A stretch of 64,000 nucleotides of DNA, taken from the NCBI GenBank assembly GCA_000002435.2, contig CM018790.1; one strand, given 5' to 3'. The DNA comes from Giardia intestinalis. Lineage: Eukaryota. A program made the translations under genes and the position numbers. Of this stretch, positions 1-26,575 are shown piece after piece. Below the pieces are notes generated by a model. It was not told the origin of the DNA and searched no databases. It saw only the letters and a list, made by a program, of their open reading frames with translations. The first letter of the stretch is position 1; each line of letters starts with the position of its first letter.

Positions 1-2565
1 AACCTCCTTGAGTTGAAGGCTGCAGTGGACACAGAGCTGATAAATATTACTGCAGAAAGGGATTTATTGGTCGCATACACTACTCCATACGTGCTCGTTC
101 AAATATCGTCACGGCTTGAGTTTACAATCGACGTTCTTAACAAGCTGCTAGCTTTACAAGAGAAACGTGAACGTGTTATGGCTCACAGGCGGCGTGACGA
201 GTGCACTGCGGCCATTGAGTTATCAAATATTTATGCAGAGGATCTGGTATCATTTTCTTTATTGATTAAGATTCCTCTTGACGAACTACATAGACATGTA
301 CCTCCGCTAGATCAAATGTCACACAATCAGATCCAGAGTAGCTACTTTGCAGAGCTAATCGGGGCTTCAGACAAAGGTATCGATGTGCTAATTAATATCC
401 TCTCTCGGGGGATCGCCTTCATAGAAGTATCTTCTGTGACATCTACCTTTCATAGTTACATCATGACAAAGCTCCAGAATTCGTCTTCATTTGAAGATAT
501 CCTCTGGGTATATACCTTTGTGCATCGAGCTGTGCACGAGAAAGCTCTTGAAGTTATCCGTGTTTCCTTTTTTACTGCTGGTAGCAAAGTATTTGAAGAA
601 GTATCCAAGGCAATGGTCAGAGTTAGAGATAAGCAGACTTATGCCACTCTTAGTTGTGCAGACATTTTCAAAGAGCACATAAACAATGCGATTCTTCTTT
701 TTCTGATCCAGCACTATACTAACTTTCTTTTGACACATTGTTTCTCCCTCTCTGAAGATGAAGTAGGTGCCTCTACAACAAGACTATCAATGGCCATCAG
801 TACCTGCATTGATAATCTGACTCTTAGTGCATATATGAAGATGCGCAGCCTTTTTCTGGCTGATCTCTTCGTCAATGCATTTGACACTTATTACGAGCTT
901 CTCGAGAGTATGGAGATGCCATGGATTGTACTGTCCACTTTGAGAGGTAATGGCTTTGATAGCACTAACATCCTTTTGGAGCTATCTCAACAGAGTGGCG
1001 GCCCCAATGATATTAGGACACTTGTTGTGCCTATTCTCCTCAAGCATATCAAGAATGACAGTTGCTACGACCAAAAGGTGCTTGCGTTTCGTTCTATCTT
1101 TGACCCACAGTGGCACTCCTCCTTTCACAAACGAGGGGAGTACTATATTCATAGATCTAGCGCGACCAGGTCTCTGGTGGATTGCGTAGTTGTACTTGAG
1201 TGTGCAGTAGATATTCTTACACATGATAAACTGCAGAAGGCAGCCATGCTTGTAGATGCAGTTCAACAGCTTGCATTTCGAATTCTTCTCTTCCATATCT
1301 TCAGAGAGTCTAAGATTCCTTACACAGCAATGCAATGCAGTATCAGGACAAAGTTTCAAACCTATGCCACCAGCATCCACCAGCGCTTGACAGATAGCCT
1401 CTTTGTTGACAGTTCTCGGCTAGGGCCTGGCTCAGAGCACATATTGTTAGGCTTGCTACGTGAATACTCATTAACAATCTCTAACATTTTCCAGCACTCC
1501 AAGAAGTATACATTATTGACAGATGCAACGGGCATAACGCTTCGAGAAAGCTTGGCAGAAACAGTTGAGGAGCTAAACGCGTACTATCTTCTTCAGAATA
1601 TAATTCATAGTATATCCGAAAAATTATATCTTGAGACCCAAATGCCTGCAGCTTATGACCGTGACAAGCAACAGCATTCTGAGGACCCCAAGGACTTGTC
1701 TGCTACAGAGGAATTACCACCACCCCAGCCAGTGGAAGATGGGCAGATTGCTTGTGATGAGAGTGATATATTTGCATCAGAGTCATGTAACCCCTCTATG
1801 CTTACATCAACAAGCCAGCCGCTCGCTGACTCCGCCATGTTATCCATAAGGTCTTTGCAATCTGTTTATGCTGCTATTGAGTCGGTGATACAGAGTATTA
1901 TAGCAAGCGAATTGAATAGAAACTTCAATCTTGTTGAGATAATGTACACAACTATTAAGAATGCAGCTGGGGAATATCGAAAAGAGGCAAAGGTAGACCG
2001 AGCAAGTAAAACAGTATATTCCAGCAAGCTTATTTCAACTCTGAAAAATAATTTCTATAACTTACGATTTGGCGTTTTAGCAACCCAAAGCAGCATCAGT
2101 GTCTCTAGTACTGATTCTGTTCTCAGCATAGTTACTCCTCCAACTGGCTCTGTGGGGCGCCCAACTTGTTCCCTTTTTAACTATCAGTTTTATAATGCGT
2201 TTGTAATACATGCATGTCAATGCTTCATAGCATCTGCTAGCAGCATTCCAGTGTACACTGCATACGGCAGAACGTGTCTAATGTATGACTATTGCAGCCT
2301 TCACAGCTTCCTTAACAGCGTCCTTCCAGATTTTTGCTTACAGAGAGTTGAGATACAGCAACACTTTGAACTCGTGCGCTCTTACATAGATCTCTATTTT
2401 GGAAGTACGGATGACATACGCGTCGCTATCTCCACTAATAAGTTTGGAGTTGGTCCATTGTTAGCACTGATCAGAACGGGGCTGGCTTGTCGCCTGACTT
2501 CGGCACAGATCGACTCTCTAGTTCTTGAGCTACCTAGCTCATTGCAAGAAAGACAATCTACTTAA
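1..2565 (+). CDS. Hypothetical protein, probably 5'-partial (reading frame open to window start; first in-window start is TTG at 13). Predicted helical, no recognisable catalytic motifs.
   Basis: Uninterrupted 850-codon ORF 13..2565 with upstream codons 1-12 also open; sits in the denser, moderately AT-rich coding context typical of the rest of the window. Confidence 0.5.
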   Translation, partial: NLLELKAAVDTELINITAERDLLVAYTTPYVLVQISSRLEFTIDVLNKLLALQEKRERVMAHRRRDECTAAIELSNIYAEDLVSFSLLIKIPLDELHRHVPPLDQMSHNQIQSSYFAELIGASDKGIDVLINILSRGIAFIEVSSVTSTFHSYIMTKLQNSSSFEDILWVYTFVHRAVHEKALEVIRVSFFTAGSKVFEEVSKAMVRVRDKQTYATLSCADIFKEHINNAILLFLIQHYTNFLLTHCFSLSEDEVGASTTRLSMAISTCIDNLTLSAYMKMRSLFLADLFVNAFDTYYELLESMEMPWIVLSTLRGNGFDSTNILLELSQQSGGPNDIRTLVVPILLKHIKNDSCYDQKVLAFRSIFDPQWHSSFHKRGEYYIHRSSATRSLVDCVVVLECAVDILTHDKLQKAAMLVDAVQQLAFRILLFHIFRESKIPYTAMQCSIRTKFQTYATSIHQRLTDSLFVDSSRLGPGSEHILLGLLREYSLTISNIFQHSKKYTLLTDATGITLRESLAETVEELNAYYLLQNIIHSISEKLYLETQMPAAYDRDKQQHSEDPKDLSATEELPPPQPVEDGQIACDESDIFASESCNPSMLTSTSQPLADSAMLSIRSLQSVYAAIESVIQSIIASELNRNFNLVEIMYTTIKNAAGEYRKEAKVDRASKTVYSSKLISTLKNNFYNLRFGVLATQSSISVSSTDSVLSIVTPPTGSVGRPTCSLFNYQFYNAFVIHACQCFIASASSIPVYTAYGRTCLMYDYCSLHSFLNSVLPDFCLQRVEIQQHFELVRSYIDLYFGSTDDIRVAISTNKFGVGPLLALIRTGLACRLTSAQIDSLVLELPSSLQERQST

Positions 2566-4102
2566 TTGCCTTTCAAACTTTTAAACTACGTATATCCTAT
2601 ACGTATTTTTCAGATAGCATGACTGATAAGGCTTCTCTTTGTCCCATCTGAGATCGGAGAACCCGACCGTACCACACTTCGCGAAGATGTGTTTGTCTCA
2701 AACAGCATCAGGGTCACATATTCACCAGAAGAGGACGGGGGTTTGCCTGATGAAGAAGGCGACGTGTCCTCTGAGGCTCGATACAGACCCCGCTTGCTAG
2801 CTGCTACTGTGACAGGCCTATGTGTGCTTGCTGCCGCATTTCTTGGGGGAGCATTCAAGGAGTAGAGAAACCCATATCTTATACTGAGAAAGGCCGAAGA
2901 GAGGGTCTCAGATACAGGTGAAAGGATCCTTCCTTCAAAGATACTTTAGTAACACTGGTGTAGACAGAAGCCAAGAAGGCTGAATCTAATTTGGATAGTT
3001 ATGTCATTGTAACACCACCCAATAGCTTGCTGAGAATTAGGACTTTGCCAGTGGGGTGTGTGGTTGTGCTTGAAGTTGAGCCACACGGAGTTGATGGTTA
3101 GACTACAAAGTAGTCGAGTTGAAGCTGTTACAACTCCAGCGTATGGGAAGAATGCAAGTGGGCGAGTTGATCACTCGTTAGCTGTTCTATCCTTGGCCAA
3201 ACCACTTGGCCGTTCGCGTTCATCCTGTATATAAGATAGTGAATGCGCATGTAACCCTCAAGAAATGCTTTATGGGAGAAGCAGTGTAAGCGTATCGAGG
3301 AACAGAAGCACGGAGACTTCTCTTAGCTACATCAAGCAAATGCTAAAGAGGGCTGCTAGTCGGAGAGTGCTTTTGGATCTGCAGTAGGATGGCGAGCAGG
3401 CATCTCTCTTGTGGAGCCGTGTGATGCCCGTTATTTGGCATGCAAAGAAGATACCATCAGGCTTAGCCAGAAACAGCCGAACAGCCTTTCATATGGTCTA
3501 CCGGAGTCATTCAATACACAAAGACGAGGCACTGTCTCATTACCACAGCGGTCTTGACAAACCCAGGCGTGCAAATGCCAACAATGCAAGCGGGACAAGT
3601 ACCATATCGATAGAGACTTGGATCTCAAAAGCAAACAGAGAGCACCGACCGCTACAGCGTGTGCTTATGCTGTCATGTATCTAACACCAGCAAGTATAAT
3701 TAGTAACAGGTCACTTGTAGGGAGTCATTGACTGCAGTGTAGCAGTGAGCAAAAGATCTAGCGTCCATTATTTGTGATTCTTAAATGCGCGAACGTTGTT
3801 CACAGTTAATAGACTACTCCGAAGGTGCCAGGCACCGAAGAATGTACGGCTAGACGTGGCGGCCACAAATCATGTACAGAAACATCAAACTAAAAAGTAG
3901 GCGGTTACGGGCGACTTTCATGGATGCATTCAAGGAATGACTGAGGCATTGTTAGGCCTGCATAATGTATCTATCGCAGGAGAGATACAGGAGCTGATAG
4001 ACACGTAGCTTACTACAATAAGTCGACAAGCAAAGCGTGGTTCAGGAGGATGCGAACCACTGTTGCATATATTAGGTTGTTGGGTTATGCCCATAAGCAT
4101 CC

Positions 4103-7100
4103 TGTGGACCGAGGCCTGCGCTCCTACACTACAGTGCAGCGGGCGGACGAGGCAGAGCCTGAATGGTATCGGAATTCCGGGGCAAGGGCTGAGCCGCGAC
4201 TGAGAGAGCAGCCTGCAGAGGGTGGAGCATAGCTCTCTGCTAACTCGAGGCGGCACAACCTGGCAATAGGACGGCTAATCCAGCCGTATTGACGTCTGAT
4301 AGACGCACCGAATACGCACTTCATGACCTCCGAATATCGTATGATGTGTGCTGGACAAGGGCCTCCCGGTGCACTTCGAGGACAGGACTGTTTAGCTAAA
4401 GCTAGAAGAGCGGTTGAGTCGTTCCCATCGGCGGCGGATGCTGCCCTGTGGACGCATATTTAAGGCTGCATCCCTTCGACTGAGCAGACAGCCGCTGGGT
4501 TACGTGCGAGCGGCCCAGGGTCTCGCCTGCCGCCTGTCCGGGCCAGTCAGCAGCTAGACTCGACATGCAGATGGAAGCCATGATAACGGACGCCGTCACG
4601 GAGGTCCGCCGTTTACTACTAGAACGGACGTGTCCGTGGCGGCCACCGTCTCCTAGAACAGCGCCCCCCCGCACAGGGCCGGCTATGTCGCGCCAGCTTG
4701 CTCGATAAGGGGCATGGGGGTCCCTTACGACGCCCTTCGGCATCTGCCGTGTCATAGGTACCCATGGCCACGAGCAGCTCAAGGGACGCAGCTATGTGGG
4801 CAGGGTAGCGTATTCATGGAGGGGCAGCTGCTTCACCTGTGCATGGCGGCGCCGGCCAGCACGTCTAGCTGCCCCACTGGCGACCACTCCTTCCCTGTGC
4901 TTGCCACAATGGGAGAGCACGTGCGCCCGTAGACCGGCAGATGCCGTGCTGGTCCTCTCGAGCAGTAGGCGCATCCTTGCGTGACATTCAGCGTGGACCA
5001 GATACCATGACCTGGGCCATCGCTACTGGCAAAGCAAGTGCTGATTGCAGCAGGGACGCCCGCCGCCCTCCAAGATAGACCAGCAACTTGCGTGTGAGGC
5101 TAGCGATGGGGCCTGCGCACCAGCTGCTATGAGCCCAGCCTTCCGGGCATCTAGATCACAGCACACTCGTCAAAGATGCACACTCATTTGCATACTCGCT
5201 GCTAGCGTTGGACAACTGCGAGGTGTCTGTCTCCGGCCGCGCTTGCCTTAGTGCTGGTCCCTGGTGATACGCCTCAGCCGAGGAGGCTATCCGTACGCGG
5301 CAGTTCCCGGAGAGAAGGCAGGGGTGACCGGCGGGCCAGGGAGATAGGACTAGCACTAGCGAGTCCAGCCATCGGCCCGGGTTGCACAAAGGACGCCTGT
5401 AGTGCCTCCCCGGCTTCTGAGCATGGAAGGGCTGTGGGGTCTGCAGATGAGACGGACGCTGTCTTTTGATTTTATGTGTTTGTAGCAGCATAGTATTTAT
5501 CGGGGTCTGCTCTGTCTGAAACCGAGAACATTCGCTTTCTTTCCTTATACAGGCTGGGATCGATTGTAGAGGTGTGCTGTGCAAACCGGTGGCAGTCAGC
5601 GTATCTACTATCCAAACGGATACTGCCTGCGTCCTCTTGTGGCAGACCACCACCAGGGCTCCAATCTGCACATCTGTTCTGGCATCTGTCGGCCAATCAT
5701 CACCTCCTGTCGAAGGATTGCTATACGTCACATATCTTGAGTCGTTCATCGACCAGGTGGTGCCATAAGCTCTTGTCTCCTACTTGTCCACCCGATGCTT
5801 ACTCTGAGCGCCGTCAATTCACTCACGTCTGCACTACTCATCTGGGTGCCCCCTACTCTTCAAGAGCACATGCCCGCAACCGATGCTCCGTATTACGAGA
5901 GGAGCCAGCCGGGCCACTGCGCTGTGCATAGCTCTCATGGGCGTATTGTTATGCGCGCCCAGCCTTTCCACCTGTAAGCTGTCACGCGGTCACATGTGCG
6001 CCAGCGCCGCCGAGCTTTCGTGGTCTCGAGGGGCCCCTGATGCATGGAGCGCTTGCGCAAAGTCCTTCCACCACTGACCCAAGCCGACCCCTCGCAAGAT
6101 CCTCAGCGGAGTTGCATCCGAGATGTGTGCTTGCATTGCTGTCCAGGTGCATGTGCCGGCCCTGGTGCTTCTCACAAGCTTGCGAGCATCAATCTGGCCT
6201 CTACCGAACCGTATCAGAAATCAACGTCAAGACGTGATCCCCTCAGTCAGGCTCTGCAGGCTCCCAGAGCTACGCACCAAAGGGCCGTTCTTCTTTGGTT
6301 GTGCAGTGTGGGGAGATCCATCGAGCTACCACACCCTTTCTGTGTGGCGTGGTTTACGACGGGGGACGGGATCCCTGTGCTCATTGTCTATCTGCCCAGG
6401 GCCAGCCACAGCCCGGGTTGACAATGACAAGCGAACATCGCCCGGCTCCTTGTCAGCAGGTGGGAACTTCCGCCACCCCAGTACCCACAGCAACGGGTGC
6501 CGATCACTGGCAGAAGGACAAGACACCCAGGCTCCCGTTCCTTCCACTGATGGTAGCCCACTATGAAGAGCCCTTTGCCGCCTGCACCAACAACCTCAGG
6601 CACTGTGGGTCCAAGTACTTCCATAGTGGACAGCGGTAGCACTATGATGATCTGGGGTGACAGGAGTCCTAGTTCACTGGCTCAGGAGACAGCACGCTTT
6701 GGGTAGTGCTTCCATCTTGTCCAGATCTGGGAGGGCTGGCTGCCTTCTGAGCCCACCTGGCACCTTGTCAGGTGATGGAGTGTCTTAAAGTATTCATTAC
6801 AAAAGATCAGAAATAGCGCCATGCATTCCCAATAGATCAGAGCGTCTCACGAGCTACTCTATGCTGATTCACACCTTTCATGGACCCTAGCGACCACTGT
6901 AACCTTCTTTCGGGATCTCGCAAGGGACTGTCCTTGAGTGCGATTCCCCCACGACAGCCGGAAGTCGCAGACATAATCCAAAGGGATGAGAGTACTACAG
7001 AGGCTGAGAGGAGAGTGCCGATGCACAGGGGTCCGCAGAGACCCGACTCGTACAGGGAAGGCGTGGATGCTGGCTCTCCAGGGATGTAGAGACACCAGGA

Positions 7101-8170
7101 AAGGAGCCGGCAGTGGGGCTTAGGCGCAGCAAAGGCACCCGATTCGTTCTCTGATTGGCCGCGAGGCAGCAGGCACATGGGGCGGCATCACCGCTTGTTT
7201 TTGGATTTTCTGTTTCCCTGCGCGTTGTGCAGGGGTCCGTAGTGGTTTGAGTATCACAGGCTACACATAGTAGATGCGTTTACTACCTAAGTCATATCTA
7301 AATCTATGCCTTTCCGCGGCAGAGGAACCACCAGCAGAGGAAGCCGACGAGGCCCCCGACGATGATGACAGCGGCCACGGCGATGCCTGCAATGGCGCCG
7401 GTAGAAAGGCCACTCTTGTTCGTGCTTCCGCCGGCACTGTCACCGTTCATGAGGTAGCAGAGGACGGAGCCTTGATTATTAGATGGAGGAGCGCAGCTCA
7501 TGCAGCCAGTAACTCCCTTGACACTTCCACTGTTGCTGTCACACGAAGTGCATGGTCCAGCTGCTGATCCGACCATATAGTACCCAGCTGCGCATGACGT
7601 ACACTTATCAGAGCTATCTGCAGTCGAGCATGTCTTGCAGGTCGAATGACACGAGGGGCATGCTCCATTATTGGGCTGAAGACCATTGGCACATGTTTCG
7701 CACTCACCCTTGCTATCAGCTAATGTGCATATCTGTTTGCCTGGCTGCTTGGTAGTTTCATAGCAGCCGCCTTCCTTGAGGAAGTAGTTAGCGGCGCATT
7801 TGGTACATGCTCCATTATTCATTTCAGTACAGAAAGCTACTCGTGCGTTACTTGTTGTACAGACCCCGTTCAGAGGAGCCTGATTATCCACTGAGCACTG
7901 GGAGCAGTAGTCTGTCCCGCCGATCCTTGCCCCACAGACCTTACATCCGTTCTTGTCCGCCGTACACGCATCCCCGCAGGTGCCCCCTTGCATAGGATCA
8001 CTACTTTTGTATATTAATGCCTTGCCAGCAGGACAAGCACTACACTGATTGTTGGCTGGCCCAACGCACTCAGCGCACTCAGGGCTGCATGCCTTACACT
8101 TCCTGTCAGTATCTCCATAGTATCCGCTGATGGCCGTGCAGTCGGATACGCACTGATTTGTTGGAGTGAG
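4103..8170. repeat. Left arm of a ~4,068-bp near-perfect inverted repeat. Contains the last ~880 bp of VSP coding sequence on the minus strand, its AGTAAAC poly(A) signal and ~3.2 kb of GC-rich ORF-poor sequence.
   Basis: Every ORF in 3930-8188 has an identical mirror ORF in 11626-15711 on the opposite strand with coordinates summing to 19814 (e.g. 4402..4782(-) <-> 15032..15412(+); 7304..8188(-) <-> end of 9211..12510(+)). Outer boundary checked by reverse-complement comparison at 4103/15711, inner boundary at 8170/11644. Confidence 0.92.
7278..7284 (-). terminator. Giardia-type polyadenylation signal AGTAAAC (AGTPuAAPy) downstream of the left VSP C-terminal segment (mirror of 12530-12536).
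   Basis: Reverse complement of gtttact at 7278-7284. Lies 20 nt past the stop of the 7304..8188 ORF. Confidence 0.5.
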
Positions 8171-8892
8171 GTAGTTCCACCATTGCACTCAGTATAGGCT
8201 TCGTTCTCTTTGCCTTCGTTATTGCACGTCTTACAGCCCGGTGTTATGCAGTTGCTAGTCGATTGGCATTCAGTTGAATCAGCGCTAGGCTGGAAGCCTT
8301 CACTGTATGTGCAAGCACCACCCTGATTGGACGAGTTGGCAGGGCAACTAGCAACGCACGACTTTTTGTTGAGGCCAAAGATGGTCTTATCAGAATCGGG
8401 GCACTCTTTGCATACTGCTCCGTCGCCGTTCTTTTCACAAGTCTTACAATCTTTTGCCCCGCCCGATGTGCAGGTAGTGCAGGTTTTCGCTGCTTCATCT
8501 ATGTAGTGTGTTGCTGGGCAATCGCCCTGATTAACGCACGTGCCTGTCTCACTGCCATCCTCCTTCTTCAGGTAGAGCGTGGCTCCAGTACACGAGGTGC
8601 ACTGCGTCTCTGTATTCTCGCATGTCTTACAGCTGGAAGCACATTTGCTGCATTTCTTTCCATTACGTGAGTCCACAAAATACCCATTATTGTAATCGGC
8701 CTCCTCGACACACGACGTTACGCCGTCGACTGTCTTGACAATCTTGCCGCCTCCACATGCATTGCACATCGCTGCCTTAGTGTTACTAGGATTAGCTGGC
8801 GTATTTGCTATCTGAATGAGTATTGTGTCGTGGTTTCCCGCAGCGGAGAAACCGCCACAGAAGAAGCCGGTGGGATCACCGGTGATAAACAT
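7304..8892 (-). pseudogene. Variant-specific surface protein (VSP) pseudogene or chimera. The N-terminal Cys-rich segment (8014..8892) is joined out of frame (-1 nt) to the duplicated VSP C-terminal region (7304..8188). No signal peptide after its first ATG.
   Basis: Two overlapping minus-strand ORFs in different frames. The upstream one is CXXC-rich (CKTC, CTSC, CKEC...). The downstream one is identical to the C-terminus of the intact VSP, including the TM segment and CRGKA tail. Comparison with the right copy shows a 1-nt length difference at the junction (left aatggtggaactacc vs right aatgataaaagttatc), which is exactly the repeat boundary. In-frame upstream sequence hits TGA with no hydrophobic leader. 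Confidence 0.6.
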
Positions 8893-9210
8893 AGCAAAGG
8901 TAAGGTTGTACGAGGGTCAGTCCTCTGAATACATTTGTGCAGAGAACCACCGAGGGAATCAGAACAGATACAAGTGGGCTAGAGGCTTTGTTATTGAAAC
9001 AGGAACCTGCTACGTCAACGATGAAAGCCCGTTCTTGGCTTCAGAGGCAGAGTCATGACAGTAGCTAGCCACTGAATGATGACGCATCCATTAGAGCTTA
9101 TTGTTCTCAACGTCTGGATCTACAATCAGATTAGTGGCAGTCCATAGTTTTACTATTGCAATTCTTCGAAGAGCAGACGCGAGTCGATAACCGAGTGTAG
9201 GTTTCGGCTA

Positions 9211-12200
9211 ATGTTGCTAGGGCTTCTCCTATTTTGTGCAGTAGCACGGGCAAACTGCAAGGCCGGGAACACGCCCTCACAAGACGGGACGACGTGCGAG
9301 CCGAATGCAAACGGATGTGCCAAAGCCTTGACCGACGCCGGCTGTGCGACCTGCACCCCGGCGGGTGACGACCAGACGTGCCTCACCTGCAACCCCGGTT
9401 CAAACAAGGTCAGGCCGGACAGGAAGGGCTGCATCGCTTCGTGTCCCGCCAACTCGAACGAGGCAGGAGGAATCTGCACGTGCACGGCCGGGAACACGCC
9501 CTCACAAGACGGGACGACGTGCGAGCCGAATGCAAACGGATGTGCCAAAGCCTTGACCGACGCCGGCTGTGCGACCTGCACCCCGGCGGGTGACGACCAG
9601 ACGTGCCTCACCTGCAACCCCGGTTCAAACAAGGTCAGGCCGGACAGGAAGGGCTGCATCGCTTCGTGTCCCGCCAACTCGAACGAGGCAGGAGGAATCT
9701 GCACGTGCACGGCCGGGAACACGCCCTCACAAGACGGGACGACGTGCGAGCCGAATGCAAACGGATGTGCCAAAGCCTTGACCGACGCCGGCTGTGCGAC
9801 CTGCACCCCGGCGGGTGACGACCAGACGTGCCTCACCTGCAACCCCGGTTCAAACAAGGTCAGGCCGGACAGGAAGGGCTGCATCGCTTCGTGTCCCGCC
9901 AACTCGAACGAGGCAGGAGGAATCTGCACGTGCACGGCCGGGAACACGCCCTCACAAGACGGGACGACGTGCGAGCCGAATGCAAACGGATGTGCCAAAG
10001 CCTTGACCGACGCCGGCTGTGCGACCTGCACCCCGGCGGGTGACGACCAGACGTGCCTCACCTGCAACCCCGGTTCAAACAAGGTCAGGCCGGACAGGAA
10101 GGGCTGCATCGCTTCGTGTCCCGCCAACTCGAACGAGGCAGGAGGAATCTGCACGTGCACGGCCGGGAACACGCCCTCACAAGACGGGACGACGTGCGAG
10201 CCGAATGCAAACGGATGTGCCAAAGCCTTGACCGACGCCGGCTGTGCGACCTGCACCCCGGCGGGTGACGACCAGACGTGCCTCACCTGCAACCCCGGTT
10301 CAAACAAGGTCAGGCCGGACAGGAAGGGCTGCATCGCTTCGTGTCCCGCCAACTCGAACGAGGCAGGAGGAATCTGCACGTGCACGGCCGGGAACACGCC
10401 CTCACAAGACGGGACGACGTGCGAGCCGAATGCAAACGGATGTGCCAAAGCCTTGACCGACGCCGGCTGTGCGACCTGCACCCCGGCGGGTGACGACCAG
10501 ACGTGCCTCACCTGCAACCCCGGTTCAAACAAGGTCAGGCCGGACAGGAAGGGCTGCATCGCTTCGTGTCCCGCCAACTCGAACGAGGCAGGAGGAATCT
10601 GCACGTGCACGGCCGGGAACACGCCCTCACAAGACGGGACGACGTGCGAGCCGAATGCAAACGGATGTGCCAAAGCCTTGACCGACGCCGGCTGTGCGAC
10701 CTGCACCCCGGCGGGTGACGACCAGACGTGCCTCACCTGCAACCCCGGTTCAAACAAGGTCAGGCCGGACAGGAAGGGCTGCATCGCTTCGTGTCCCGCC
10801 AACTCGAACGAGGCAGGAGGAATCTGCACGTGCACGGCCGGGAACACGCCCTCACAAGACGGGACGACGTGCGAGCCGAATGCAAACGGATGTGCCAAAG
10901 CCTTGACCGACGCCGGCTGTGCGACCTGCACCCCGGCGGGTGACGACCAGACGTGCCTCACCTGCAACCCCGGTTCAAACAAGGTCAGGCCGGACAGGAA
11001 GGGCTGCATCGCTTCGTGTCCCGCCAACTCGAACGAGGCAGGAGGAATCTGCACGTGCACGGCCGGGAACACGCCCTCACAAGACGGGACGACGTGCGAG
11101 CCGAATGCAAACGGATGTGCCAAAGCCTTGACCGACGCCGGCTGTGCGACCTGCACCCCGGCGGGTGACGACCAGACGTGCCTCACCTGCAACCCCGGTT
11201 CAAACAAGGTCAGGCCGGACAGGAAGGGCTGCATCGCTTCGTGTCCCGCCAACTCGAACGAGGCAGGAGGAATCTGCACGTGCACGGCCGGGAACACGCC
11301 CTCACAAGACGGGACGACGTGCGAGCCGAATGCAAACGGATGTGCCAAAGCCTTGACCGACGCCGGCTGTGCGACCTGCACCCCGGCGGGTGACGACCAG
11401 ACGTGCCTCACCTGCAACCCCGGTTCAAACAAGGTCAGGCCGGACAGGAAGGGCTGCATCGCTTCGTGTCCCGCCAACTCGAACGAGGCAGGAGGAATCT
11501 GCACGTGCACGGCCGGGAACACGCCCTCACAAGACGGGACGACGTGCGTATCAGAGACGGCCTGCAATACTCCCAACTGCAAGGCATGTGATAACCCGAA
11601 GACTGACAGAGAGGTCTGTACTGAATGTAATGATAAAAGTTATCTCACTCCAACAAATCAGTGCGTATCCGACTGCACGGCCATCAGCGGATACTATGGA
11701 GATACTGACAGGAAGTGTAAGGCATGCAGCCCTGAGTGCGCTGAGTGCGTTGGGCCAGCCAACAATCAGTGTAGTGCTTGTCCTGCTGGCAAGGCATTAA
11801 TATACAAAAGTAGTGATCCTATGCAAGGGGGCACCTGCGGGGATGCGTGTACGGCGGACAAGAACGGATGTAAGGTCTGTGGGGCAAGGATCGGCGGGAC
11901 AGACTACTGCTCCCAGTGCTCAGTGGATAATCAGGCTCCTCTGAACGGGGTCTGTACAACAAGTAACGCACGAGTAGCTTTCTGTACTGAAATGAATAAT
12001 GGAGCATGTACCAAATGCGCCGCTAACTACTTCCTCAAGGAAGGCGGCTGCTATGAAACTACCAAGCAGCCAGGCAAACAGATATGCACATTAGCTGATA
12101 GCAAGGGTGAGTGCGAAACATGTGCCAATGGTCTTCAGCCCAATAATGGAGCATGCCCCTCGTGTCATTCGACCTGCAAGACATGCTCGACTGCAGATAG

Positions 12201-12510
12201 CTCTGATAAGTGTACGTCATGCGCAGCTGGGTACTATATGGTCGGATCAGCAGCTGGACCATGCACTTCGTGTGACAGCAACAGTGGAAGTGTCAAGGGA
12301 GTTGCTGGCTGCATGAGCTGCGCTCCTCCATCTAATAATCAAGGCTCCGTCCTCTGCTACCTCATGAACGGTGACAGTGCCGGCGGAAGCACGAACAAGA
12401 GTGGCCTTTCTACCGGCGCCATTGCAGGCATCGCCGTGGCCGCTGTCATCATCGTCGGGGGCCTCGTCGGCTTCCTCTGCTGGTGGTTCCTCTGCCGCGG
12501 AAAGGCATAG
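9211..12510 (+). CDS. vsp: Variant-specific surface protein (VSP), intact, 1099 aa. Has signal peptide MLLGLLLFCAVARA, ~10 identical 75-aa Cys-rich tandem repeats, conserved C-terminal Cys-rich region, a TM segment (GAIAGIAVAAVIIVGGLVGFLCWWFL) and the CRGKA cytoplasmic tail.
   Basis: ATG at 9211; many CXXC motifs; GGCY-like motif; C-terminal ...CWWFLCRGKA* is the invariant Giardia VSP tail; AGTAAAC poly(A) signal 20 nt after the TAG stop. Confidence 0.92.
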   Translation: MLLGLLLFCAVARANCKAGNTPSQDGTTCEPNANGCAKALTDAGCATCTPAGDDQTCLTCNPGSNKVRPDRKGCIASCPANSNEAGGICTCTAGNTPSQDGTTCEPNANGCAKALTDAGCATCTPAGDDQTCLTCNPGSNKVRPDRKGCIASCPANSNEAGGICTCTAGNTPSQDGTTCEPNANGCAKALTDAGCATCTPAGDDQTCLTCNPGSNKVRPDRKGCIASCPANSNEAGGICTCTAGNTPSQDGTTCEPNANGCAKALTDAGCATCTPAGDDQTCLTCNPGSNKVRPDRKGCIASCPANSNEAGGICTCTAGNTPSQDGTTCEPNANGCAKALTDAGCATCTPAGDDQTCLTCNPGSNKVRPDRKGCIASCPANSNEAGGICTCTAGNTPSQDGTTCEPNANGCAKALTDAGCATCTPAGDDQTCLTCNPGSNKVRPDRKGCIASCPANSNEAGGICTCTAGNTPSQDGTTCEPNANGCAKALTDAGCATCTPAGDDQTCLTCNPGSNKVRPDRKGCIASCPANSNEAGGICTCTAGNTPSQDGTTCEPNANGCAKALTDAGCATCTPAGDDQTCLTCNPGSNKVRPDRKGCIASCPANSNEAGGICTCTAGNTPSQDGTTCEPNANGCAKALTDAGCATCTPAGDDQTCLTCNPGSNKVRPDRKGCIASCPANSNEAGGICTCTAGNTPSQDGTTCEPNANGCAKALTDAGCATCTPAGDDQTCLTCNPGSNKVRPDRKGCIASCPANSNEAGGICTCTAGNTPSQDGTTCVSETACNTPNCKACDNPKTDREVCTECNDKSYLTPTNQCVSDCTAISGYYGDTDRKCKACSPECAECVGPANNQCSACPAGKALIYKSSDPMQGGTCGDACTADKNGCKVCGARIGGTDYCSQCSVDNQAPLNGVCTTSNARVAFCTEMNNGACTKCAANYFLKEGGCYETTKQPGKQICTLADSKGECETCANGLQPNNGACPSCHSTCKTCSTADSSDKCTSCAAGYYMVGSAAGPCTSCDSNSGSVKGVAGCMSCAPPSNNQGSVLCYLMNGDSAGGSTNKSGLSTGAIAGIAVAAVIIVGGLVGFLCWWFLCRGKA
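9262..11547 (+). repeat. In-frame tandem array of ~10.2 identical 225-bp units inside the VSP gene. Each unit encodes 75 aa (...AGNTPSQDGTTCEPNANGCAKALTDAGCATCTPAGDDQTCLTCNPGSNKVRPDRKGCIASCPANSNEAGGICTCT).
   Basis: Identical shadow ORFs recur every 225 nt (9344, 9569, 9794 ... 11369) on the plus strand, and the minus-strand ORF 9153..11582 shows a matching 75-aa periodicity. No unit-to-unit differences visible in the translations. Confidence 0.93.
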
Positions 12511-15500
12511 ATTTAGATATGACTTAGGTAGTAAACGCATCTACTATGTGTAGCCTGTGATACTCAAACCACTACGGACCCCTGCACAACGCGCAGGGAA
12601 ACAGAAAATCCAAAAACAAGCGGTGATGCCGCCCCATGTGCCTGCTGCCTCGCGGCCAATCAGAGAACGAATCGGGTGCCTTTGCTGCGCCTAAGCCCCA
12701 CTGCCGGCTCCTTTCCTGGTGTCTCTACATCCCTGGAGAGCCAGCATCCACGCCTTCCCTGTACGAGTCGGGTCTCTGCGGACCCCTGTGCATCGGCACT
12801 CTCCTCTCAGCCTCTGTAGTACTCTCATCCCTTTGGATTATGTCTGCGACTTCCGGCTGTCGTGGGGGAATCGCACTCAAGGACAGTCCCTTGCGAGATC
12901 CCGAAAGAAGGTTACAGTGGTCGCTAGGGTCCATGAAAGGTGTGAATCAGCATAGAGTAGCTCGTGAGACGCTCTGATCTATTGGGAATGCATGGCGCTA
13001 TTTCTGATCTTTTGTAATGAATACTTTAAGACACTCCATCACCTGACAAGGTGCCAGGTGGGCTCAGAAGGCAGCCAGCCCTCCCAGATCTGGACAAGAT
13101 GGAAGCACTACCCAAAGCGTGCTGTCTCCTGAGCCAGTGAACTAGGACTCCTGTCACCCCAGATCATCATAGTGCTACCGCTGTCCACTATGGAAGTACT
13201 TGGACCCACAGTGCCTGAGGTTGTTGGTGCAGGCGGCAAAGGGCTCTTCATAGTGGGCTACCATCAGTGGAAGGAACGGGAGCCTGGGTGTCTTGTCCTT
13301 CTGCCAGTGATCGGCACCCGTTGCTGTGGGTACTGGGGTGGCGGAAGTTCCCACCTGCTGACAAGGAGCCGGGCGATGTTCGCTTGTCATTGTCAACCCG
13401 GGCTGTGGCTGGCCCTGGGCAGATAGACAATGAGCACAGGGATCCCGTCCCCCGTCGTAAACCACGCCACACAGAAAGGGTGTGGTAGCTCGATGGATCT
13501 CCCCACACTGCACAACCAAAGAAGAACGGCCCTTTGGTGCGTAGCTCTGGGAGCCTGCAGAGCCTGACTGAGGGGATCACGTCTTGACGTTGATTTCTGA
13601 TACGGTTCGGTAGAGGCCAGATTGATGCTCGCAAGCTTGTGAGAAGCACCAGGGCCGGCACATGCACCTGGACAGCAATGCAAGCACACATCTCGGATGC
13701 AACTCCGCTGAGGATCTTGCGAGGGGTCGGCTTGGGTCAGTGGTGGAAGGACTTTGCGCAAGCGCTCCATGCATCAGGGGCCCCTCGAGACCACGAAAGC
13801 TCGGCGGCGCTGGCGCACATGTGACCGCGTGACAGCTTACAGGTGGAAAGGCTGGGCGCGCATAACAATACGCCCATGAGAGCTATGCACAGCGCAGTGG
13901 CCCGGCTGGCTCCTCTCGTAATACGGAGCATCGGTTGCGGGCATGTGCTCTTGAAGAGTAGGGGGCACCCAGATGAGTAGTGCAGACGTGAGTGAATTGA
14001 CGGCGCTCAGAGTAAGCATCGGGTGGACAAGTAGGAGACAAGAGCTTATGGCACCACCTGGTCGATGAACGACTCAAGATATGTGACGTATAGCAATCCT
14101 TCGACAGGAGGTGATGATTGGCCGACAGATGCCAGAACAGATGTGCAGATTGGAGCCCTGGTGGTGGTCTGCCACAAGAGGACGCAGGCAGTATCCGTTT
14201 GGATAGTAGATACGCTGACTGCCACCGGTTTGCACAGCACACCTCTACAATCGATCCCAGCCTGTATAAGGAAAGAAAGCGAATGTTCTCGGTTTCAGAC
14301 AGAGCAGACCCCGATAAATACTATGCTGCTACAAACACATAAAATCAAAAGACAGCGTCCGTCTCATCTGCAGACCCCACAGCCCTTCCATGCTCAGAAG
14401 CCGGGGAGGCACTACAGGCGTCCTTTGTGCAACCCGGGCCGATGGCTGGACTCGCTAGTGCTAGTCCTATCTCCCTGGCCCGCCGGTCACCCCTGCCTTC
14501 TCTCCGGGAACTGCCGCGTACGGATAGCCTCCTCGGCTGAGGCGTATCACCAGGGACCAGCACTAAGGCAAGCGCGGCCGGAGACAGACACCTCGCAGTT
14601 GTCCAACGCTAGCAGCGAGTATGCAAATGAGTGTGCATCTTTGACGAGTGTGCTGTGATCTAGATGCCCGGAAGGCTGGGCTCATAGCAGCTGGTGCGCA
14701 GGCCCCATCGCTAGCCTCACACGCAAGTTGCTGGTCTATCTTGGAGGGCGGCGGGCGTCCCTGCTGCAATCAGCACTTGCTTTGCCAGTAGCGATGGCCC
14801 AGGTCATGGTATCTGGTCCACGCTGAATGTCACGCAAGGATGCGCCTACTGCTCGAGAGGACCAGCACGGCATCTGCCGGTCTACGGGCGCACGTGCTCT
14901 CCCATTGTGGCAAGCACAGGGAAGGAGTGGTCGCCAGTGGGGCAGCTAGACGTGCTGGCCGGCGCCGCCATGCACAGGTGAAGCAGCTGCCCCTCCATGA
15001 ATACGCTACCCTGCCCACATAGCTGCGTCCCTTGAGCTGCTCGTGGCCATGGGTACCTATGACACGGCAGATGCCGAAGGGCGTCGTAAGGGACCCCCAT
15101 GCCCCTTATCGAGCAAGCTGGCGCGACATAGCCGGCCCTGTGCGGGGGGGCGCTGTTCTAGGAGACGGTGGCCGCCACGGACACGTCCGTTCTAGTAGTA
15201 AACGGCGGACCTCCGTGACGGCGTCCGTTATCATGGCTTCCATCTGCATGTCGAGTCTAGCTGCTGACTGGCCCGGACAGGCGGCAGGCGAGACCCTGGG
15301 CCGCTCGCACGTAACCCAGCGGCTGTCTGCTCAGTCGAAGGGATGCAGCCTTAAATATGCGTCCACAGGGCAGCATCCGCCGCCGATGGGAACGACTCAA
15401 CCGCTCTTCTAGCTTTAGCTAAACAGTCCTGTCCTCGAAGTGCACCGGGAGGCCCTTGTCCAGCACACATCATACGATATTCGGAGGTCATGAAGTGCGT

Positions 15501-15711
15501 ATTCGGTGCGTCTATCAGACGTCAATACGGCTGGATTAGCCGTCCTATTGCCAGGTTGTGCCGCCTCGAGTTAGCAGAGAGCTATGCTCCACCCTCTGCA
15601 GGCTGCTCTCTCAGTCGCGGCTCAGCCCTTGCCCCGGAATTCCGATACCATTCAGGCTCTGCCTCGTCCGCCCGCTGCACTGTAGTGTAGGAGCGCAGGC
15701 CTCGGTCCACA
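11644..15711. repeat. Right arm of the ~4,068-bp inverted repeat (mirror of 4103-8170).
   Basis: Same as left arm. One confirmed difference: right 12304 g vs the complement of left 7510 t, giving VSP residue A vs T (GVAGCM vs GVTGCM). Confidence 0.92.
12530..12536 (+). terminator. Polyadenylation signal AGTAAAC (AGTPuAAPy consensus) for the VSP gene.
   Basis: agtaaac located 20 nt downstream of the TAG at 12508-12510. Confidence 0.55.
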
Positions 15712-15909
15712 CTTCAGTGTTACCCATTCCCATAGTGCAATCCGTCACATTAGAAGATCAAGGATGTTTTAGCTTAGTCTTTGCAACCATCTATGAAGAG
15801 TGCTTCGCAAAGGAAAGAACATGGCAAAACTTTATTGGGACTTTGTCCAGCACTCTTCTAAGCCTAGAATCCGCATTGCCAACGACTAGGGAAGTATCGA
15901 ATGTTCTAG

Positions 15910-16862
15910 GAAACCGCTTGGAAGCACAGCCCACGATATGTTGCCCTGCAAGAGCCTTTCCCTTTAACTCGGCGCATTCAGCCATGCACTCCCACCTCTA
16001 TAGAATTCCGAGACGTCTGCTTTTCCTACAAGACGGGCTGCGATATTCTACATGGCTTGACCCTGTTTGTTCATCCCGGTCAGAAGGTTGCTATCGTGGG
16101 AGGTCGGGGATTGGCAAGTCCACGATCATCAACCTCTTGACGCGGCTATACACCACACCCCAGCATCAGGACACTTCGTCGCCCGGAATCTATCTCAATG
16201 GCAGGGCTATAGGGTCCATCCCACGCGAGGAGCTACGGAGGCTTATAACAGTCGTCCCGCAGGATAACATACTCATCAGGGGCTCTGCCACGGACAACAT
16301 CGCCTATGGACAGCCTCGCAAGCTCCCGGGCTCCCACGCAGAAGAGGAGCAGAGGCGCTACATCCGAGAAGTCATTCGGCTATGCTACGAGGCTTCCCGT
16401 GTTGTTGCGGCTGAAGAGCTCCTGGGAGACGCACCATACAGTGGAACCCTGCAGGGCCTTTCTGGGGGACAACGCCAACGGGTAGGAATTGCCAGAGCTG
16501 TCGCACGTGGAGGCAGCGTTCTTGTGCTCGACGAGGCGACGTCGGCACTCGACGAAGAGACAGAGAAGCGGGTCCTCCAACAGCTATTCCGCTCACTGGA
16601 CCCCAACCAGAGCGTCGTCATTATCAGTCACAGACTCTCCACTCTCCGGTATGTCGACCTGATTTATGTCCTAGATAATCCAGATGGCAGTGGAGCGCGC
16701 GTGGTAGAGTCAGGCTCGTACGACTGGTTCGTTGCCGAAAGCCAATATCTGAAGGATGCAGGCCAGGATATCTCTGACCTTGTGAGTAACTGTGGCTGTA
16801 GCAGCGCAGGTGTTACCCCAGGCTTCTCCCATGCAACTCTTGATGCAAAGGGGGATCCGTAG
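15910..16862 (+). pseudogene. ABC-transporter C-terminal nucleotide-binding-domain remnant (ABCB/MDR-like NBD). No start codon or transmembrane domain, and a 1-nt deletion (G-run ~16098-16104) splits the Walker A motif between two frames.
   Basis: Frame +1 (15910-16110): ...SIEFRDVCFSYKTGCDILHGLTLFVHPGQKVAIVGG. After the shift, frame 0 continues: SGIGKSTIINLL...IAYGQP...LSGGQRQRVGIARAV (ABC signature)...VLVLDEATSALD (Walker B)...ISHRLSTL (H-loop). The long 15558..16862 ORF only seems to start inside the inverted repeat because the repeat's GC-rich DNA reads open in that frame. Confidence 0.7.
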
Positions 16863-16903
16863 AAGCAAAGCACGCCTGGTGGCGAAGACGAGTAAAAATA
16901 AAA

Positions 16904-17500
16904 ATGCCAGCAAATGAACACTGCGCAGATCTGATTTCTCGCCTGTTATATTTGCGCTCCCTACAAGCCCTGTACATAAACAGACGCGTCGAAAAAACGG
17001 TCTACATGAAACAGATAAATGACCTTTTTGGTATTCCAGGATCCCAAGAGGGGCCCATTCAAATCCTACTCAAAAGCCTAAAAATTGGAACACTTAGTGA
17101 ACTTCGCAGGTTGCTGAAGAACTACGAGATAGATTGCACTGAAATATCGTCTATTGAATACATTCTGCTTGAGCGCAAAGTCGTCAGTGGGGAGTATTGC
17201 CAGAAGGTAGATAAAAATACCAGGGAGCTGCTCGAATGCTTGTATGAAACAATAAACCTCCTAACGCCCAATTCGCCCCTAAGTTATGATCAACTTCTAA
17301 CGTATGGCAATAATCTGGTGTCCAAAGCAAAAAAACTCACAGATGGCGTCAACTCAACGTGGCCAGTACTCAAGGAACTCGAAGGCTTAGTAGAACAGAT
17401 AGAGCATGAAGCTAATTTGAAAACAAACATCTGTCCAGCAGATTTAAAAAGTGCATTTGCAGAACGTTTAAAAAGCATATATGATAAAATATTCTGCTGA
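16904..17500 (+). CDS. Hypothetical protein (198 aa). Stops at a TGA that is in frame with, and 3 nt before, the next ORF.
   Basis: ATG at 16904; no recognisable motifs. Confidence 0.4.
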   Translation: MPANEHCADLISRLLYLRSLQALYINRRVEKTVYMKQINDLFGIPGSQEGPIQILLKSLKIGTLSELRRLLKNYEIDCTEISSIEYILLERKVVSGEYCQKVDKNTRELLECLYETINLLTPNSPLSYDQLLTYGNNLVSKAKKLTDGVNSTWPVLKELEGLVEQIEHEANLKTNICPADLKSAFAERLKSIYDKIFC

Positions 17501-17503
17501 CAA

Positions 17504-18274
17504 ATGATAAAGCTTAGACTAGAGGACAGTAAATCGCACATTCTGAAGGCAGGAGATGGCGAGTTAGTGGACGCTTTGGACCATACAGGGGAACAATCTG
17601 CAAGGGTGATGAGGGCATCACCTTTTGCGGTTCCATACCCTACCAAAGCAGACGCGTCTGTCTATAAGTATCTCTGCTACCTGGAGTTTCTTCTGAAGCT
17701 CCAGAGGAGGTGCCATGGCTCTCAAGAGGTGGAAACCGAAATTCATGCCGTGTTGAGCACAAAGGGCCCGATCGTTAGAGGATGTTCTCTGCTGCACATC
17801 AGGACGATGGATAGTCTAGTTCGTCGCCTCAAATCGTTCTTTATAGACTTTCAGAACTGCTACGATGCAATTACATTGGTTGGCAAAGAGCTATTTGTGG
17901 GAGACAACATTGTCTGTCCACAGGTAGATAGAGATGAACTTCTATCAAGCTTTTATGTGCTTATTGGGCTTCTCAACGAAAGATCTTCACCGGCTTATCT
18001 CGAGGAAGTCTATTACTCCATCTGGGGGCTTGTTCGACAGATAGATGGTACTCAAGCAATTCAAGATGCCTTCTTCACAGAACGGAATGCACTCGTTGGC
18101 ATCTTGCAGGAGCTTTATGGTTATGTAAAGCAAAAAGAGAAGGAAACTGCGATAGACTTACCTTCGCAGATTGGAAAGCCTACCCAGCGTCTACTTGATA
18201 TTGCTCTCCGTAAGCGTTTACTCGAGCAGCTTGTTCCCCTCTACAAAGCGATGCATGCTCAAGTCAACGTCTGA
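17504..18274 (+). CDS. Hypothetical protein (256 aa), same frame as 16904..17500.
   Basis: ATG at 17504 immediately after TGA-CAA; no recognisable motifs. Confidence 0.4.
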   Translation: MIKLRLEDSKSHILKAGDGELVDALDHTGEQSARVMRASPFAVPYPTKADASVYKYLCYLEFLLKLQRRCHGSQEVETEIHAVLSTKGPIVRGCSLLHIRTMDSLVRRLKSFFIDFQNCYDAITLVGKELFVGDNIVCPQVDRDELLSSFYVLIGLLNERSSPAYLEEVYYSIWGLVRQIDGTQAIQDAFFTERNALVGILQELYGYVKQKEKETAIDLPSQIGKPTQRLLDIALRKRLLEQLVPLYKAMHAQVNV

Positions 18275-18348
18275 CCTGCCATACTAGCGAATGGGCCCGC
18301 CGAACTTGAAAAAGGACAATCAAGCAACATGAAAATTCCAAAAAAGAG

Positions 18349-22826: not shown

Positions 22827-22950
22827 CTATGCGAAGTACAAGAATTTATTTGGAGATAAAGATAATAAGAAAACAAGACGGTAGAACACTAGAATATCTG
22901 AATAAGAATCTAGTCCTAACTCTAATGCAGAACAAAGGACAAAGATGCTG

Positions 22951-25734: not shown

Positions 25735-25792
25735 ACCAGCTCAATATCGGGCAAAAAAGCAGAGGCCTTGTTTTTTCAAAAGACTCTTTAAA

Positions 25793-26575
25793 ATGCTTTG
25801 TGGGACCCTGTGCCTGGCTCTGTGCCTGATCAGTGTCAGCTCTGTATTTGGGTCGAAGACAGAGGATGCTGTGAAGATGGATACCATACTAACAGAGGGT
25901 GTGCACCTCTTCATGACCCAGCTTCTTCAGAGCGTGGCAGATGACTGCAAAACGTGCGTTACTGAGTACACGGCACCAGCAATAGATCTTTTTAAGGATG
26001 TCTGTGCAATATGCATCACTGAATACCGAGAGCACGGACTTAACCTATACACGAAAGGCTGTCAAGATTGCATTGAGATATACCAATCTTATCTGATGGT
26101 TCCCTATGCCGGGACGTATTCTATTTGCAGAAAGTACTATGCCAGCTACGACCTAGAGTTATTTGGCACCGGCTGCACCAAGTACATAACTGCATATCTT
26201 GACGGGGGGCTCGTCTTACCCGGAGAAGCATGCGCTCACTGCCTGAAACTTTTCATCGCGCACTCCCTTACCGTATACAATGGTAGCTGCTATGCGTACA
26301 TCGCACAAAGTACATCAAAGCAACTGGCGCAGGCGAACATTCCTCCAACACACAACTTCAAACTCGGAGAGATAATGTACGACGGTATCTTGCCTGTACG
26401 GATCTACAAGGGATGTCTACGAAGCGTCCAGAACTACTATGCGCCCCTCTTGCTAAACTTTTATAAGGATAACAGGTATGCAATATGCTTGGGAGCTATG
26501 TACTTTATGTCACTGATGATTGGCCTCGGCTGTCTACACTGTGGTGTGTATCGCTCGAAGAGTAGCGACTTATAA
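25793..26575 (+). CDS. Small secreted or membrane Cys-rich protein (260 aa) with signal peptide, several CXXC motifs and a C-terminal hydrophobic segment; hypothetical.
   Basis: MLCGTLCLALCLISVSSVFG leader; CKTC, CAIC, CQDC, CAHC motifs; C-terminal YFMSLMIGLGCLHCGVY. Its ATG is 58 bp from the divergent MCM start. Confidence 0.5.
   Translation: MLCGTLCLALCLISVSSVFGSKTEDAVKMDTILTEGVHLFMTQLLQSVADDCKTCVTEYTAPAIDLFKDVCAICITEYREHGLNLYTKGCQDCIEIYQSYLMVPYAGTYSICRKYYASYDLELFGTGCTKYITAYLDGGLVLPGEACAHCLKLFIAHSLTVYNGSCYAYIAQSTSKQLAQANIPPTHNFKLGEIMYDGILPVRIYKGCLRSVQNYYAPLLLNFYKDNRYAICLGAMYFMSLMIGLGCLHCGVYRSKSSDL

Follow-up and report, generated by a model that had tools for sequence, protein, structure and literature searches.

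A truncated and frameshifted VSP copy in Giardia intestinalis WB is probably a pseudogene facing a live repeat-containing VSP in an old palindrome

Two VSP genes lie head to head in a 64-kb stretch of Giardia intestinalis WB DNA (the window, to which all coordinates refer), the left one on the minus strand and the right one on the plus strand, joined by a large inverted repeat. How did the left one come to be split between two reading frames and to lack a signal peptide? A first-pass annotation of the window had proposed that the palindrome arose by duplication of the 3' end of the right VSP onto a different VSP, which was thereby destroyed, or else that a single-base error hides an intact gene. 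Our analysis suggests that the left gene is most probably a genuine VSP pseudogene of WB, located opposite a live repeat-containing VSP in an old palindrome, with the history proposed below. The locus is already known and of a known kind (VSP165/VSP166), and its significance is mostly one of annotation. Added here are the findings that two gene models of 2007 are one pseudogene, that its leader was lost by a truncation at ~8790 shared with isolate DH, that its frameshift is specific to WB, and that the palindrome probably predates the split between sub-assemblages A1, to which WB belongs, and A2, to which DH belongs.

The left VSP consists of two minus-strand open reading frames (ORFs), 8014..8892 (292 aa) and 7304..8188 (294 aa, ending in CRGKA), which lie in different frames (8892 - 8188 = 704 = 2 mod 3). 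The Pfam family VSP (PF03302) matched both of them, the 294-aa part with E = 6e-86 and the 292-aa part weakly. The C-terminal VSP module (7304..8170, minus strand) comprises a Cys-rich region, a transmembrane helix, the CRGKA tail and a TAG stop at 7304-7306; helix and tail (7304-7420) are one frame off the upstream part, and the single continuous ORF expected of a functional VSP is interrupted. The motif AGTAAAC, read directly from the sequence 20 nt past the stop (7278..7284, minus strand) and present in both arms, presumably corresponds to the Giardia poly(A) signal consensus AGTRAAY. Upstream, a unique Cys-rich fragment (8203..8790, minus strand) was aligned to VSP relatives and to a protein of DH and corresponds to residues ~175-370 of VSPs of ~400 aa. 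According to the PF03302 match and this alignment, the region is CXXC-rich and homologous to the extracellular part of VSPs, though three conserved Cys have been replaced by Tyr, two of them within the unique fragment (8692-8694 and 8305-8307) and one just outside the arm (8194-8196), where the left gene encodes EAYTEC and the right gene EVCTEC.

The right gene (9211..12510, plus strand) encodes an intact VSP of 1099 aa, VSP165 (KAE8302486.1 / XP_001703907.2, encoded on a WB contig of 1,539,535 bp), with a leader (MLLGLLLFCAVARA), a TAATGTT start and the CRGKA tail; it contains 10.2 near-perfect copies of a 225-bp (75-aa) repeat at 9256-11548. An antisense ORF of 809 aa (9153..11582) is a by-product of this repeat.

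The inverted-repeat arms were at first called at 4103-8173 and 11641-15711 with a spacer of 3467 nt. Comparison base by base revealed that 4103-8170 (left arm) equals 11644-15711 (right arm) save for one mismatch at 7510 (1/4068 positions; 99.98% identity), further mismatches between left and right occurring from 8171 and 8174 on. A 4-kb repeat with a single mismatch far exceeds what chance would yield. Each arm comprises 3.2 kb of GC-rich non-coding 3' flank and the final 867 nt of VSP coding sequence, and only the last 289 codons are common to both genes, their 5' parts differing in architecture (a tandem repeat in the right, a truncated fragment in the left gene). The 3' flank within the arms (4103-7303 and 12511-15711) displayed a GC content of 56-58% as against 43-49% outside, and a Pfam scan of the arm ORFs resulted in no matches, with no retroelement remnant detected. 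At the sole arm difference (7510 / 12304) the left gene encodes VKGVTGC and the right gene VKGVAGC, which can be used as a marker for telling the copies apart.

Inverted VSP pairs of the vsp1267 type, arranged head to head or tail to tail and showing identity up to an abrupt divergence, have been described before, with 14 identical and 5 non-identical pairs (Adam et al. 2010, PMC2996952). The present pair resembles them in its head-to-head arrangement, its near-perfect identity (one arm mismatch) followed by abrupt divergence, its abrupt outer ends and the few kb between the repeated parts. In contrast to the identical pairs, whose members both have identical complete ORFs, sharing is confined here to the 3' third of the coding sequence, and identity extends 3.2 kb past the stop instead of 139-729 bp; furthermore, no more than 318 bp separate the gene starts, and one of the two genes is dead.

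In a protein search with the unique part, the 292-aa ORF was 100% identical to XP_001704632.1 ('VSP [Giardia lamblia ATCC 50803]'), including its frameshifted tail, and a 229-aa piece of the second ORF that starts with ATG (7304..7993, beginning MQGGTCGDAC...) exactly matched VSP166 (GL50803_112048, XP_001704633.1). Both are Sanger-era models of 2007 with consecutive accessions. The window holds the 2020 version of the right VSP, and the 2020 assembly was built de novo from PacBio data, with indels corrected using 100x Illumina data (Xu et al. 2020, PMC7000408). Even the difference at 7510 was already present in the 2007 proteins, since XP_001704633.1 and the right-arm protein of that annotation, XP_001703907.1, differ at the respective residue. 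Thus, two independent data sets agree, which largely excludes a sequencing error and indicates that the frameshift is real. The 294-aa ORF, which starts with GTG, was not present in the protein collection, and searches for the exact 292-aa and 229-aa proteins on independent contigs found no record.

In the catalogue of Adam et al. (2010, PMC2996952), VSP166 (GL50803_112048) is listed as HH with 229 aa, 27 Cys, 9 CXXC, 23.0 kDa and no Inr, and VSP165 as HH_TR225 with 1024 aa, 133 Cys, 32 CXXC, 101.5 kDa and TAATGTT. The 229-aa piece of the window has the same 27 Cys, 9 CXXC and 23.0 kDa, and together with the right protein minus one 75-aa repeat it reproduces the catalogue numbers of both genes exactly. 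VSP166 and the adjacent 292-aa 'VSP' of 2007 would hence be the two halves of one dead gene and should be excluded from the expressed VSP repertoire. The 1024 aa of VSP165 in 2010 as against 1099 aa in the window correspond to exactly one repeat fewer, which reflects either copy-number variation or a collapse of repeats in the earlier assembly.

At the join, the left gene reads ...tgcaatggtgg-aactacc followed by tcactcc and the right gene ...tgtaatgataaaagttatc (in short form aatgataaaagttatc) followed by tcactcc, so that the left copy is 1 nt shorter, as the first-pass annotation had noted along with the two-frame structure. The same annotation placed the fusion exactly at the repeat boundary; the frame change does lie beside it, but the gap at ~8176/8177 is 6-7 nt outside the last identical base. 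It belongs to a transition zone just outside the arm (8171..8202, minus strand), which showed 10 transitions, no transversion and the 1-nt deletion in comparison with the right gene (69% identity). Upstream of 8202, identity between left and right drops to 31-60% and transversions roughly equal transitions in number, the pattern of ancient paralogs, from which the patch differs; downstream of the zone identity is 100%. Such a pattern fits a once-shared stretch that drifted, or damage where a conversion event ended. Hypermutation of the RIP (repeat-induced point mutation) or deaminase type was considered for this transition-only patch and dropped, as the baseline between DH and WB already amounts to 7-10 transitions per transversion; in ordinary neighbouring genes (16863-27430 against the DH contig L013, introduced below), the ratios were 41:6 and 114:12.

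The join lies inside a Cys-rich module, C-x-T-x-N-C-K-x-C-...-C-T-E-C-N-x-x-x-Y-L-T-P-T-N-Q-C, that recurs in over 40 VSPs from assemblages A, B and E. As the left gene carries its own version of this module (NCITPGCKTCNNEGKENEAYTECNGGT-), and so does the left gene of DH, the boundary of identity thus appears to be an end point within pre-existing homology, namely the end of a homologous conversion tract and no illegitimate fusion of unrelated sequence. The proposal of a chimera of unrelated VSPs does not agree with this homologous module, with its occurrence in so many VSPs, or with the DH gene, which passes the join in frame. A third donor VSP with 'ECNGGTYL' was searched for and not found, the nearest sequence being 'ECNGGNYLTPTNQC' in a P15 protein.

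With regard to the missing leader, the peptide following the ATG at 8892 (MFITGDPTGFFCGG...) does not display a VSP-type leader as judged by sequence and homology. The frame upstream reads ...MYSED-stop-PSYNLTFA with the TGA at 8917-8919, and a hydrophobic stretch (LVSVLIPSVVLC, 8939-8974) lies in another frame without a Met, all as previously noted. The initiator TAATGTT/CAATGTT, which many though not all VSPs possess, is absent from the left start (context tttgctATGTTTat; right gene, ggcTAATGTTgc). Alignment of the 8014..8892 peptide to other VSPs revealed VSPs of 390-414 aa as the closest relatives of the unique part (48-57% identity), which align only from their own residue ~175 (PKAATCTACGDGKIVK...), corresponding to left residue ~39. 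Likewise, tblastn with the first 190 residues of these relatives showed homology from 8799 and no VSP N-terminus in 8800-9210. This interval belongs to a 420-bp 5'-flank unit of the right VSP (8791..9210, plus strand). An alignment in which most positions match shows the unit to be homologous to the region upstream of a VSP at another locus in DH (contig L002, 7581-8000), the homology setting in sharply at 8787-8791. Read in antisense, the unit accounts for codons 1-34 of the left ORF (ATG 8890-8892), for the upstream TGA and for the hydrophobic stretch.

Since the relatives align only from residue ~175 and 8791-9210 is a homolog of a flank, the left gene is 5'-truncated, its VSP fragment ending at ~8790 against the 5' flank of the right gene, with ~170 N-terminal codons lost, leader included. 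The hydrophobic stretch can therefore not be taken for a lost leader, as it lies in the neighbour's flank unit and shows no similarity to VSP N-termini. The 420-bp unit with its TAATGTT start context occurs at the WB locus and at the different DH locus, and VSPs of this subfamily thus seem to duplicate or move along with a defined upstream block. The DH gene P0035, which is located downstream of the DH unit, was rejected as an ortholog of the right gene, as it belongs to another locus, where its neighbours are Ras and oxidoreductase genes.

VSPs for which no start codon yields a proper signal peptide are classified as pseudo-VSPs, of which 208 were annotated in WB together with 19 duplicated pairs (Xu et al. 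2020, PMC7000408), and the left gene fits this definition. A preprint of 2022 on type I/II pVSPs (10.1101/2022.03.07.483299) shows some that are split across frames and others that have an ORF but no signal peptide. The left gene shares with the pseudo-VSPs of WB the VSP homology, CXXC motifs, the transmembrane helix and CRGKA in another frame, the absence of a signal peptide and the split frame. Unlike most pVSPs, which lie in arrays or at assembly ends, it is located half within a palindrome, and its 3' 867 nt are a near-perfect copy of a live gene.

The comparison with DH suggests an order for the lesions. At the 90% level, the 292-aa protein clusters with the DH protein ESU34723.1 (546 aa). 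The DH contig AHGT01000171.1, which is 4685 bp long, matches window positions 9790..5114 collinearly and extends from the beginning of a VSP with repeats across the flank unit and the left gene into 2.2 kb of 3' flank. DH has the same 5' breakpoint and leaderless start region as WB, its ORF beginning with MYSKDRPSYNLTFAIFITG..., and ESU34723.1 passes the join in frame (...NKICTECNDNNYLTPTNQCIPDC...CRGKA, through ECNDNNYLTPTNQC; ...KICTECNDNNYLTPTNQC...). At 8917-8919, WB has TGA and DH has CGA; the three Tyr of WB (8692-8694, 8305-8307 and 8194-8196) correspond to Cys in all other sequences of the alignment, that of DH among them; and the -1 deletion is present in WB and absent from DH. DH thus shares the breakpoint but not the other lesions, which argues that the truncation predates the A1/A2 split and that the TGA, the three Cys-to-Tyr changes and the -1 deletion arose in the WB lineage.

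Identity between the left gene of DH and WB was 95-99% in the unique fragment, 47-69% in the coding part of the arm (7516-8000) and ~90% in the 3' flank. The 3' flank within the arms differs by 9-12% between DH and WB, neighbouring genes by 1.4-1.8%. Differences in and around the unique fragment cluster by both junctions: 13 fall within 39 nt (8748-8786) and another 13, together with a gap, within 33 nt (8171-8203), whereas the intervening 537 nt contain 12.

A second DH contig, AHGT01000041.1 (L013), begins at about window position 14488 and spans the outer end of the right arm (15711) into an ABC transporter fragment and the orthologs of GL50803_8348 and GL50803_8349. Its first ~200 nt overlap the far end of the contig with the DH left arm (L001) in the arm-equivalent position with 82% identity over 183 nt. 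The WB arm is clearly closer to L013 and lacks the insertions of L001. DH therefore has two arm copies, diverged over this overlap, where the arms of WB differ at 1 of 4068 positions. On the simplest reading, the inverted duplication would be older than the A1/A2 split. Since the WB arms resemble the right and not the left arm of DH over these 183 nt, copying probably ran from right to left, and gene conversion from the live right arm would have replaced the left arm of WB as far as 8170.

Whereas the anatomy of the locus, its two breakpoints, the comparison with DH and the match between two assemblies are observed, we infer from these patterns that gene conversion made the arms uniform, in which direction it ran and which event preceded which, and propose the following history. 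Before WB (A1) and DH (A2) separated, a VSP would have become joined at ~8790 to the 420-bp unit that forms the right VSP's 5' flank, losing its first ~170 codons and its signal peptide, so that the ATG at 8892 would be a chance start within the right gene's flank in antisense. The two genes, inverted relative to each other, would have had the conserved C-terminal module and the 3' flank in common. In the WB lineage, conversion from arm to arm, with the right (live) copy as probable donor, may then have homogenised the arms and reached 8170 within the ...CTECNxxxYLTPTNQC... module. Outside the converted tract, the WB pseudogene would have decayed by the -1 deletion 6-7 nt from the tract end, by three Cys-to-Tyr changes at otherwise invariant Cys and by the upstream CGA-to-TGA change. 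The left gene is most probably non-functional, with no sign that the locus makes a surface protein. The locus may thus serve as a worked example of VSP pseudogene formation, with 5' truncation followed by decay outside a conversion tract, and as an indication that a VSP palindrome can predate the A1/A2 split and still look brand new in WB.

Large palindromes of the human Y chromosome are kept uniform by arm-to-arm gene conversion. The WB palindrome resembles them in that identity between its arms (1/4068 differences) is far above that between lineages (9-12% divergence between DH and WB), with arms that seem to have diverged in the sister lineage according to the 183-nt overlap in DH. Unlike in the Y-chromosome palindromes, the scale is 4 kb, and the process is deduced from sequence patterns only.

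Several points weigh against this history. The direction of conversion is read from a 183-nt overlap at two DH contig ends and from the divergent coding part of DH, and a change specific to DH could mimic a signal of right-to-left conversion. The DH ORF is intact over 546 codons and its start (MYSKDRPSYNLTFAIFITG...) has a short hydrophobic run, so that the ancestral gene may have been alive. The pN/pS ratio of DH against WB in the fragment (0.40) is uninformative under the transition bias. The independence of the 2007 and 2020 assemblies is taken from the papers and from protein identity, not from reads. Finally, there are no 2020 WB protein entries for the left ORFs, which would fit an annotation as pseudogene.

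A different role for the dead left copy would be that of an active partner, repeated arm-to-arm conversion keeping a second pristine C-terminal module and 3' flank available; in that case, error-prone repair associated with recombination would have left the clusters of differences by both junctions (8171-8203, including the -1 deletion, and 8748-8786) as its scars. We consider this possible but unlikely; if true, palindromes would shape both the diversification and the death of VSP genes.

It is rather improbable that the palindrome arose de novo in WB, with the 3' end and flank of the right VSP illegitimately joined onto an intact, different VSP and the left gene destroyed in the process. Identity does halt abruptly at 8170, with the frames differing within 7 nt, and the coding part of the WB arm is unlike the left gene of DH (47-69%) yet 89% identical in protein to a WB paralog of the repeat type, KAE8305473.1, with nearly the same module in KAE8305455.1. 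However, DH has the sequence of both arms in diverged form, placing the inverted duplication before the A1/A2 split; its left gene already has a homologous in-frame C-terminal module and 3' flank; and paralogous homology runs on across the boundary. What stands of the duplication proposed earlier is that the 3' half of the left gene equals that of the right and that copying probably ran from right to left, though the palindrome is probably not new in WB. Destruction of the left gene by the duplication is not supported either, as the leaderless, truncated 5' end, its main defect, also occurs in DH and is older than the WB frameshift.

Could the locus still be functional, as a 229-aa mini-VSP (VSP166), by way of a ribosomal-frameshift product or by supplying RNA for the silencing of VSPs? 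In the catalogue of Adam et al. (2010), VSP166 counts as a complete gene of clade III, the block of 294 codons is uninterrupted with the AGTAAAC motif downstream, and the role of many partial VSPs is questioned in the 2022 preprint (10.1101/2022.03.07.483299). Yet the 229-aa ORF has neither a leader nor TAATGTT/CAATGTT at its start, the intact block is accounted for by its identity with the live copy, no evidence of a frameshift signal was seen, and the 2020 criteria class a VSP without signal peptide as a pseudo-VSP, so that we regard function as very improbable.

That a single-base sequencing or polishing error conceals an intact VSP is hardly credible: PacBio homopolymer errors did cause frameshifts before Illumina correction (Xu et al. 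2020, PMC7000408) and one added base (act tac ctc) would restore NGGTYLTPTNQC in frame with the CRGKA tail, but the site (ggtggaactacc) has no long homopolymer, the same frameshifted 292-aa and separate 229-aa products, identical to the window, appear in the Sanger-based annotation of 2007, and the repaired gene would still lack ~170 N-terminal codons and its leader and retain the three Cys-to-Tyr changes.

For the mapping of RNA-seq, small-RNA and proteomic data, 7304-8170 is indistinguishable from the live gene except at 7510, and only 8171-8790 is diagnostic of the left copy.

Concerning the surroundings of the palindrome, window positions 1-4102 hold no complete small gene. The right arm adjoins a truncated and frameshifted fragment of a multidrug-type ABC transporter gene (15712-16862), whose homology to an intact 933-aa gene begins exactly at 15944; the intact gene of WB (KAE8303138.1 / XP_001710177.2) is located on a different contig of 1.97 Mb. 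DH has the same fragment beside its ortholog of GL50803_8348 (ESU36688.1, 271 aa). Among Logan short-read contigs compared with 15944-27500, L003, L004, L005 and L009 showed the intact ABC gene joined straight to GL50803_8348 and the downstream genes with 99.6-99.8% identity to the window, and many others end ~99 nt past the ABC stop or begin 76 nt before GL50803_8348. Contigs joining the intact gene to GL50803_8348 may stem from a further copy, from a different haplotype or isolate, or from chimeric joining across a ~0.9-kb repeat.

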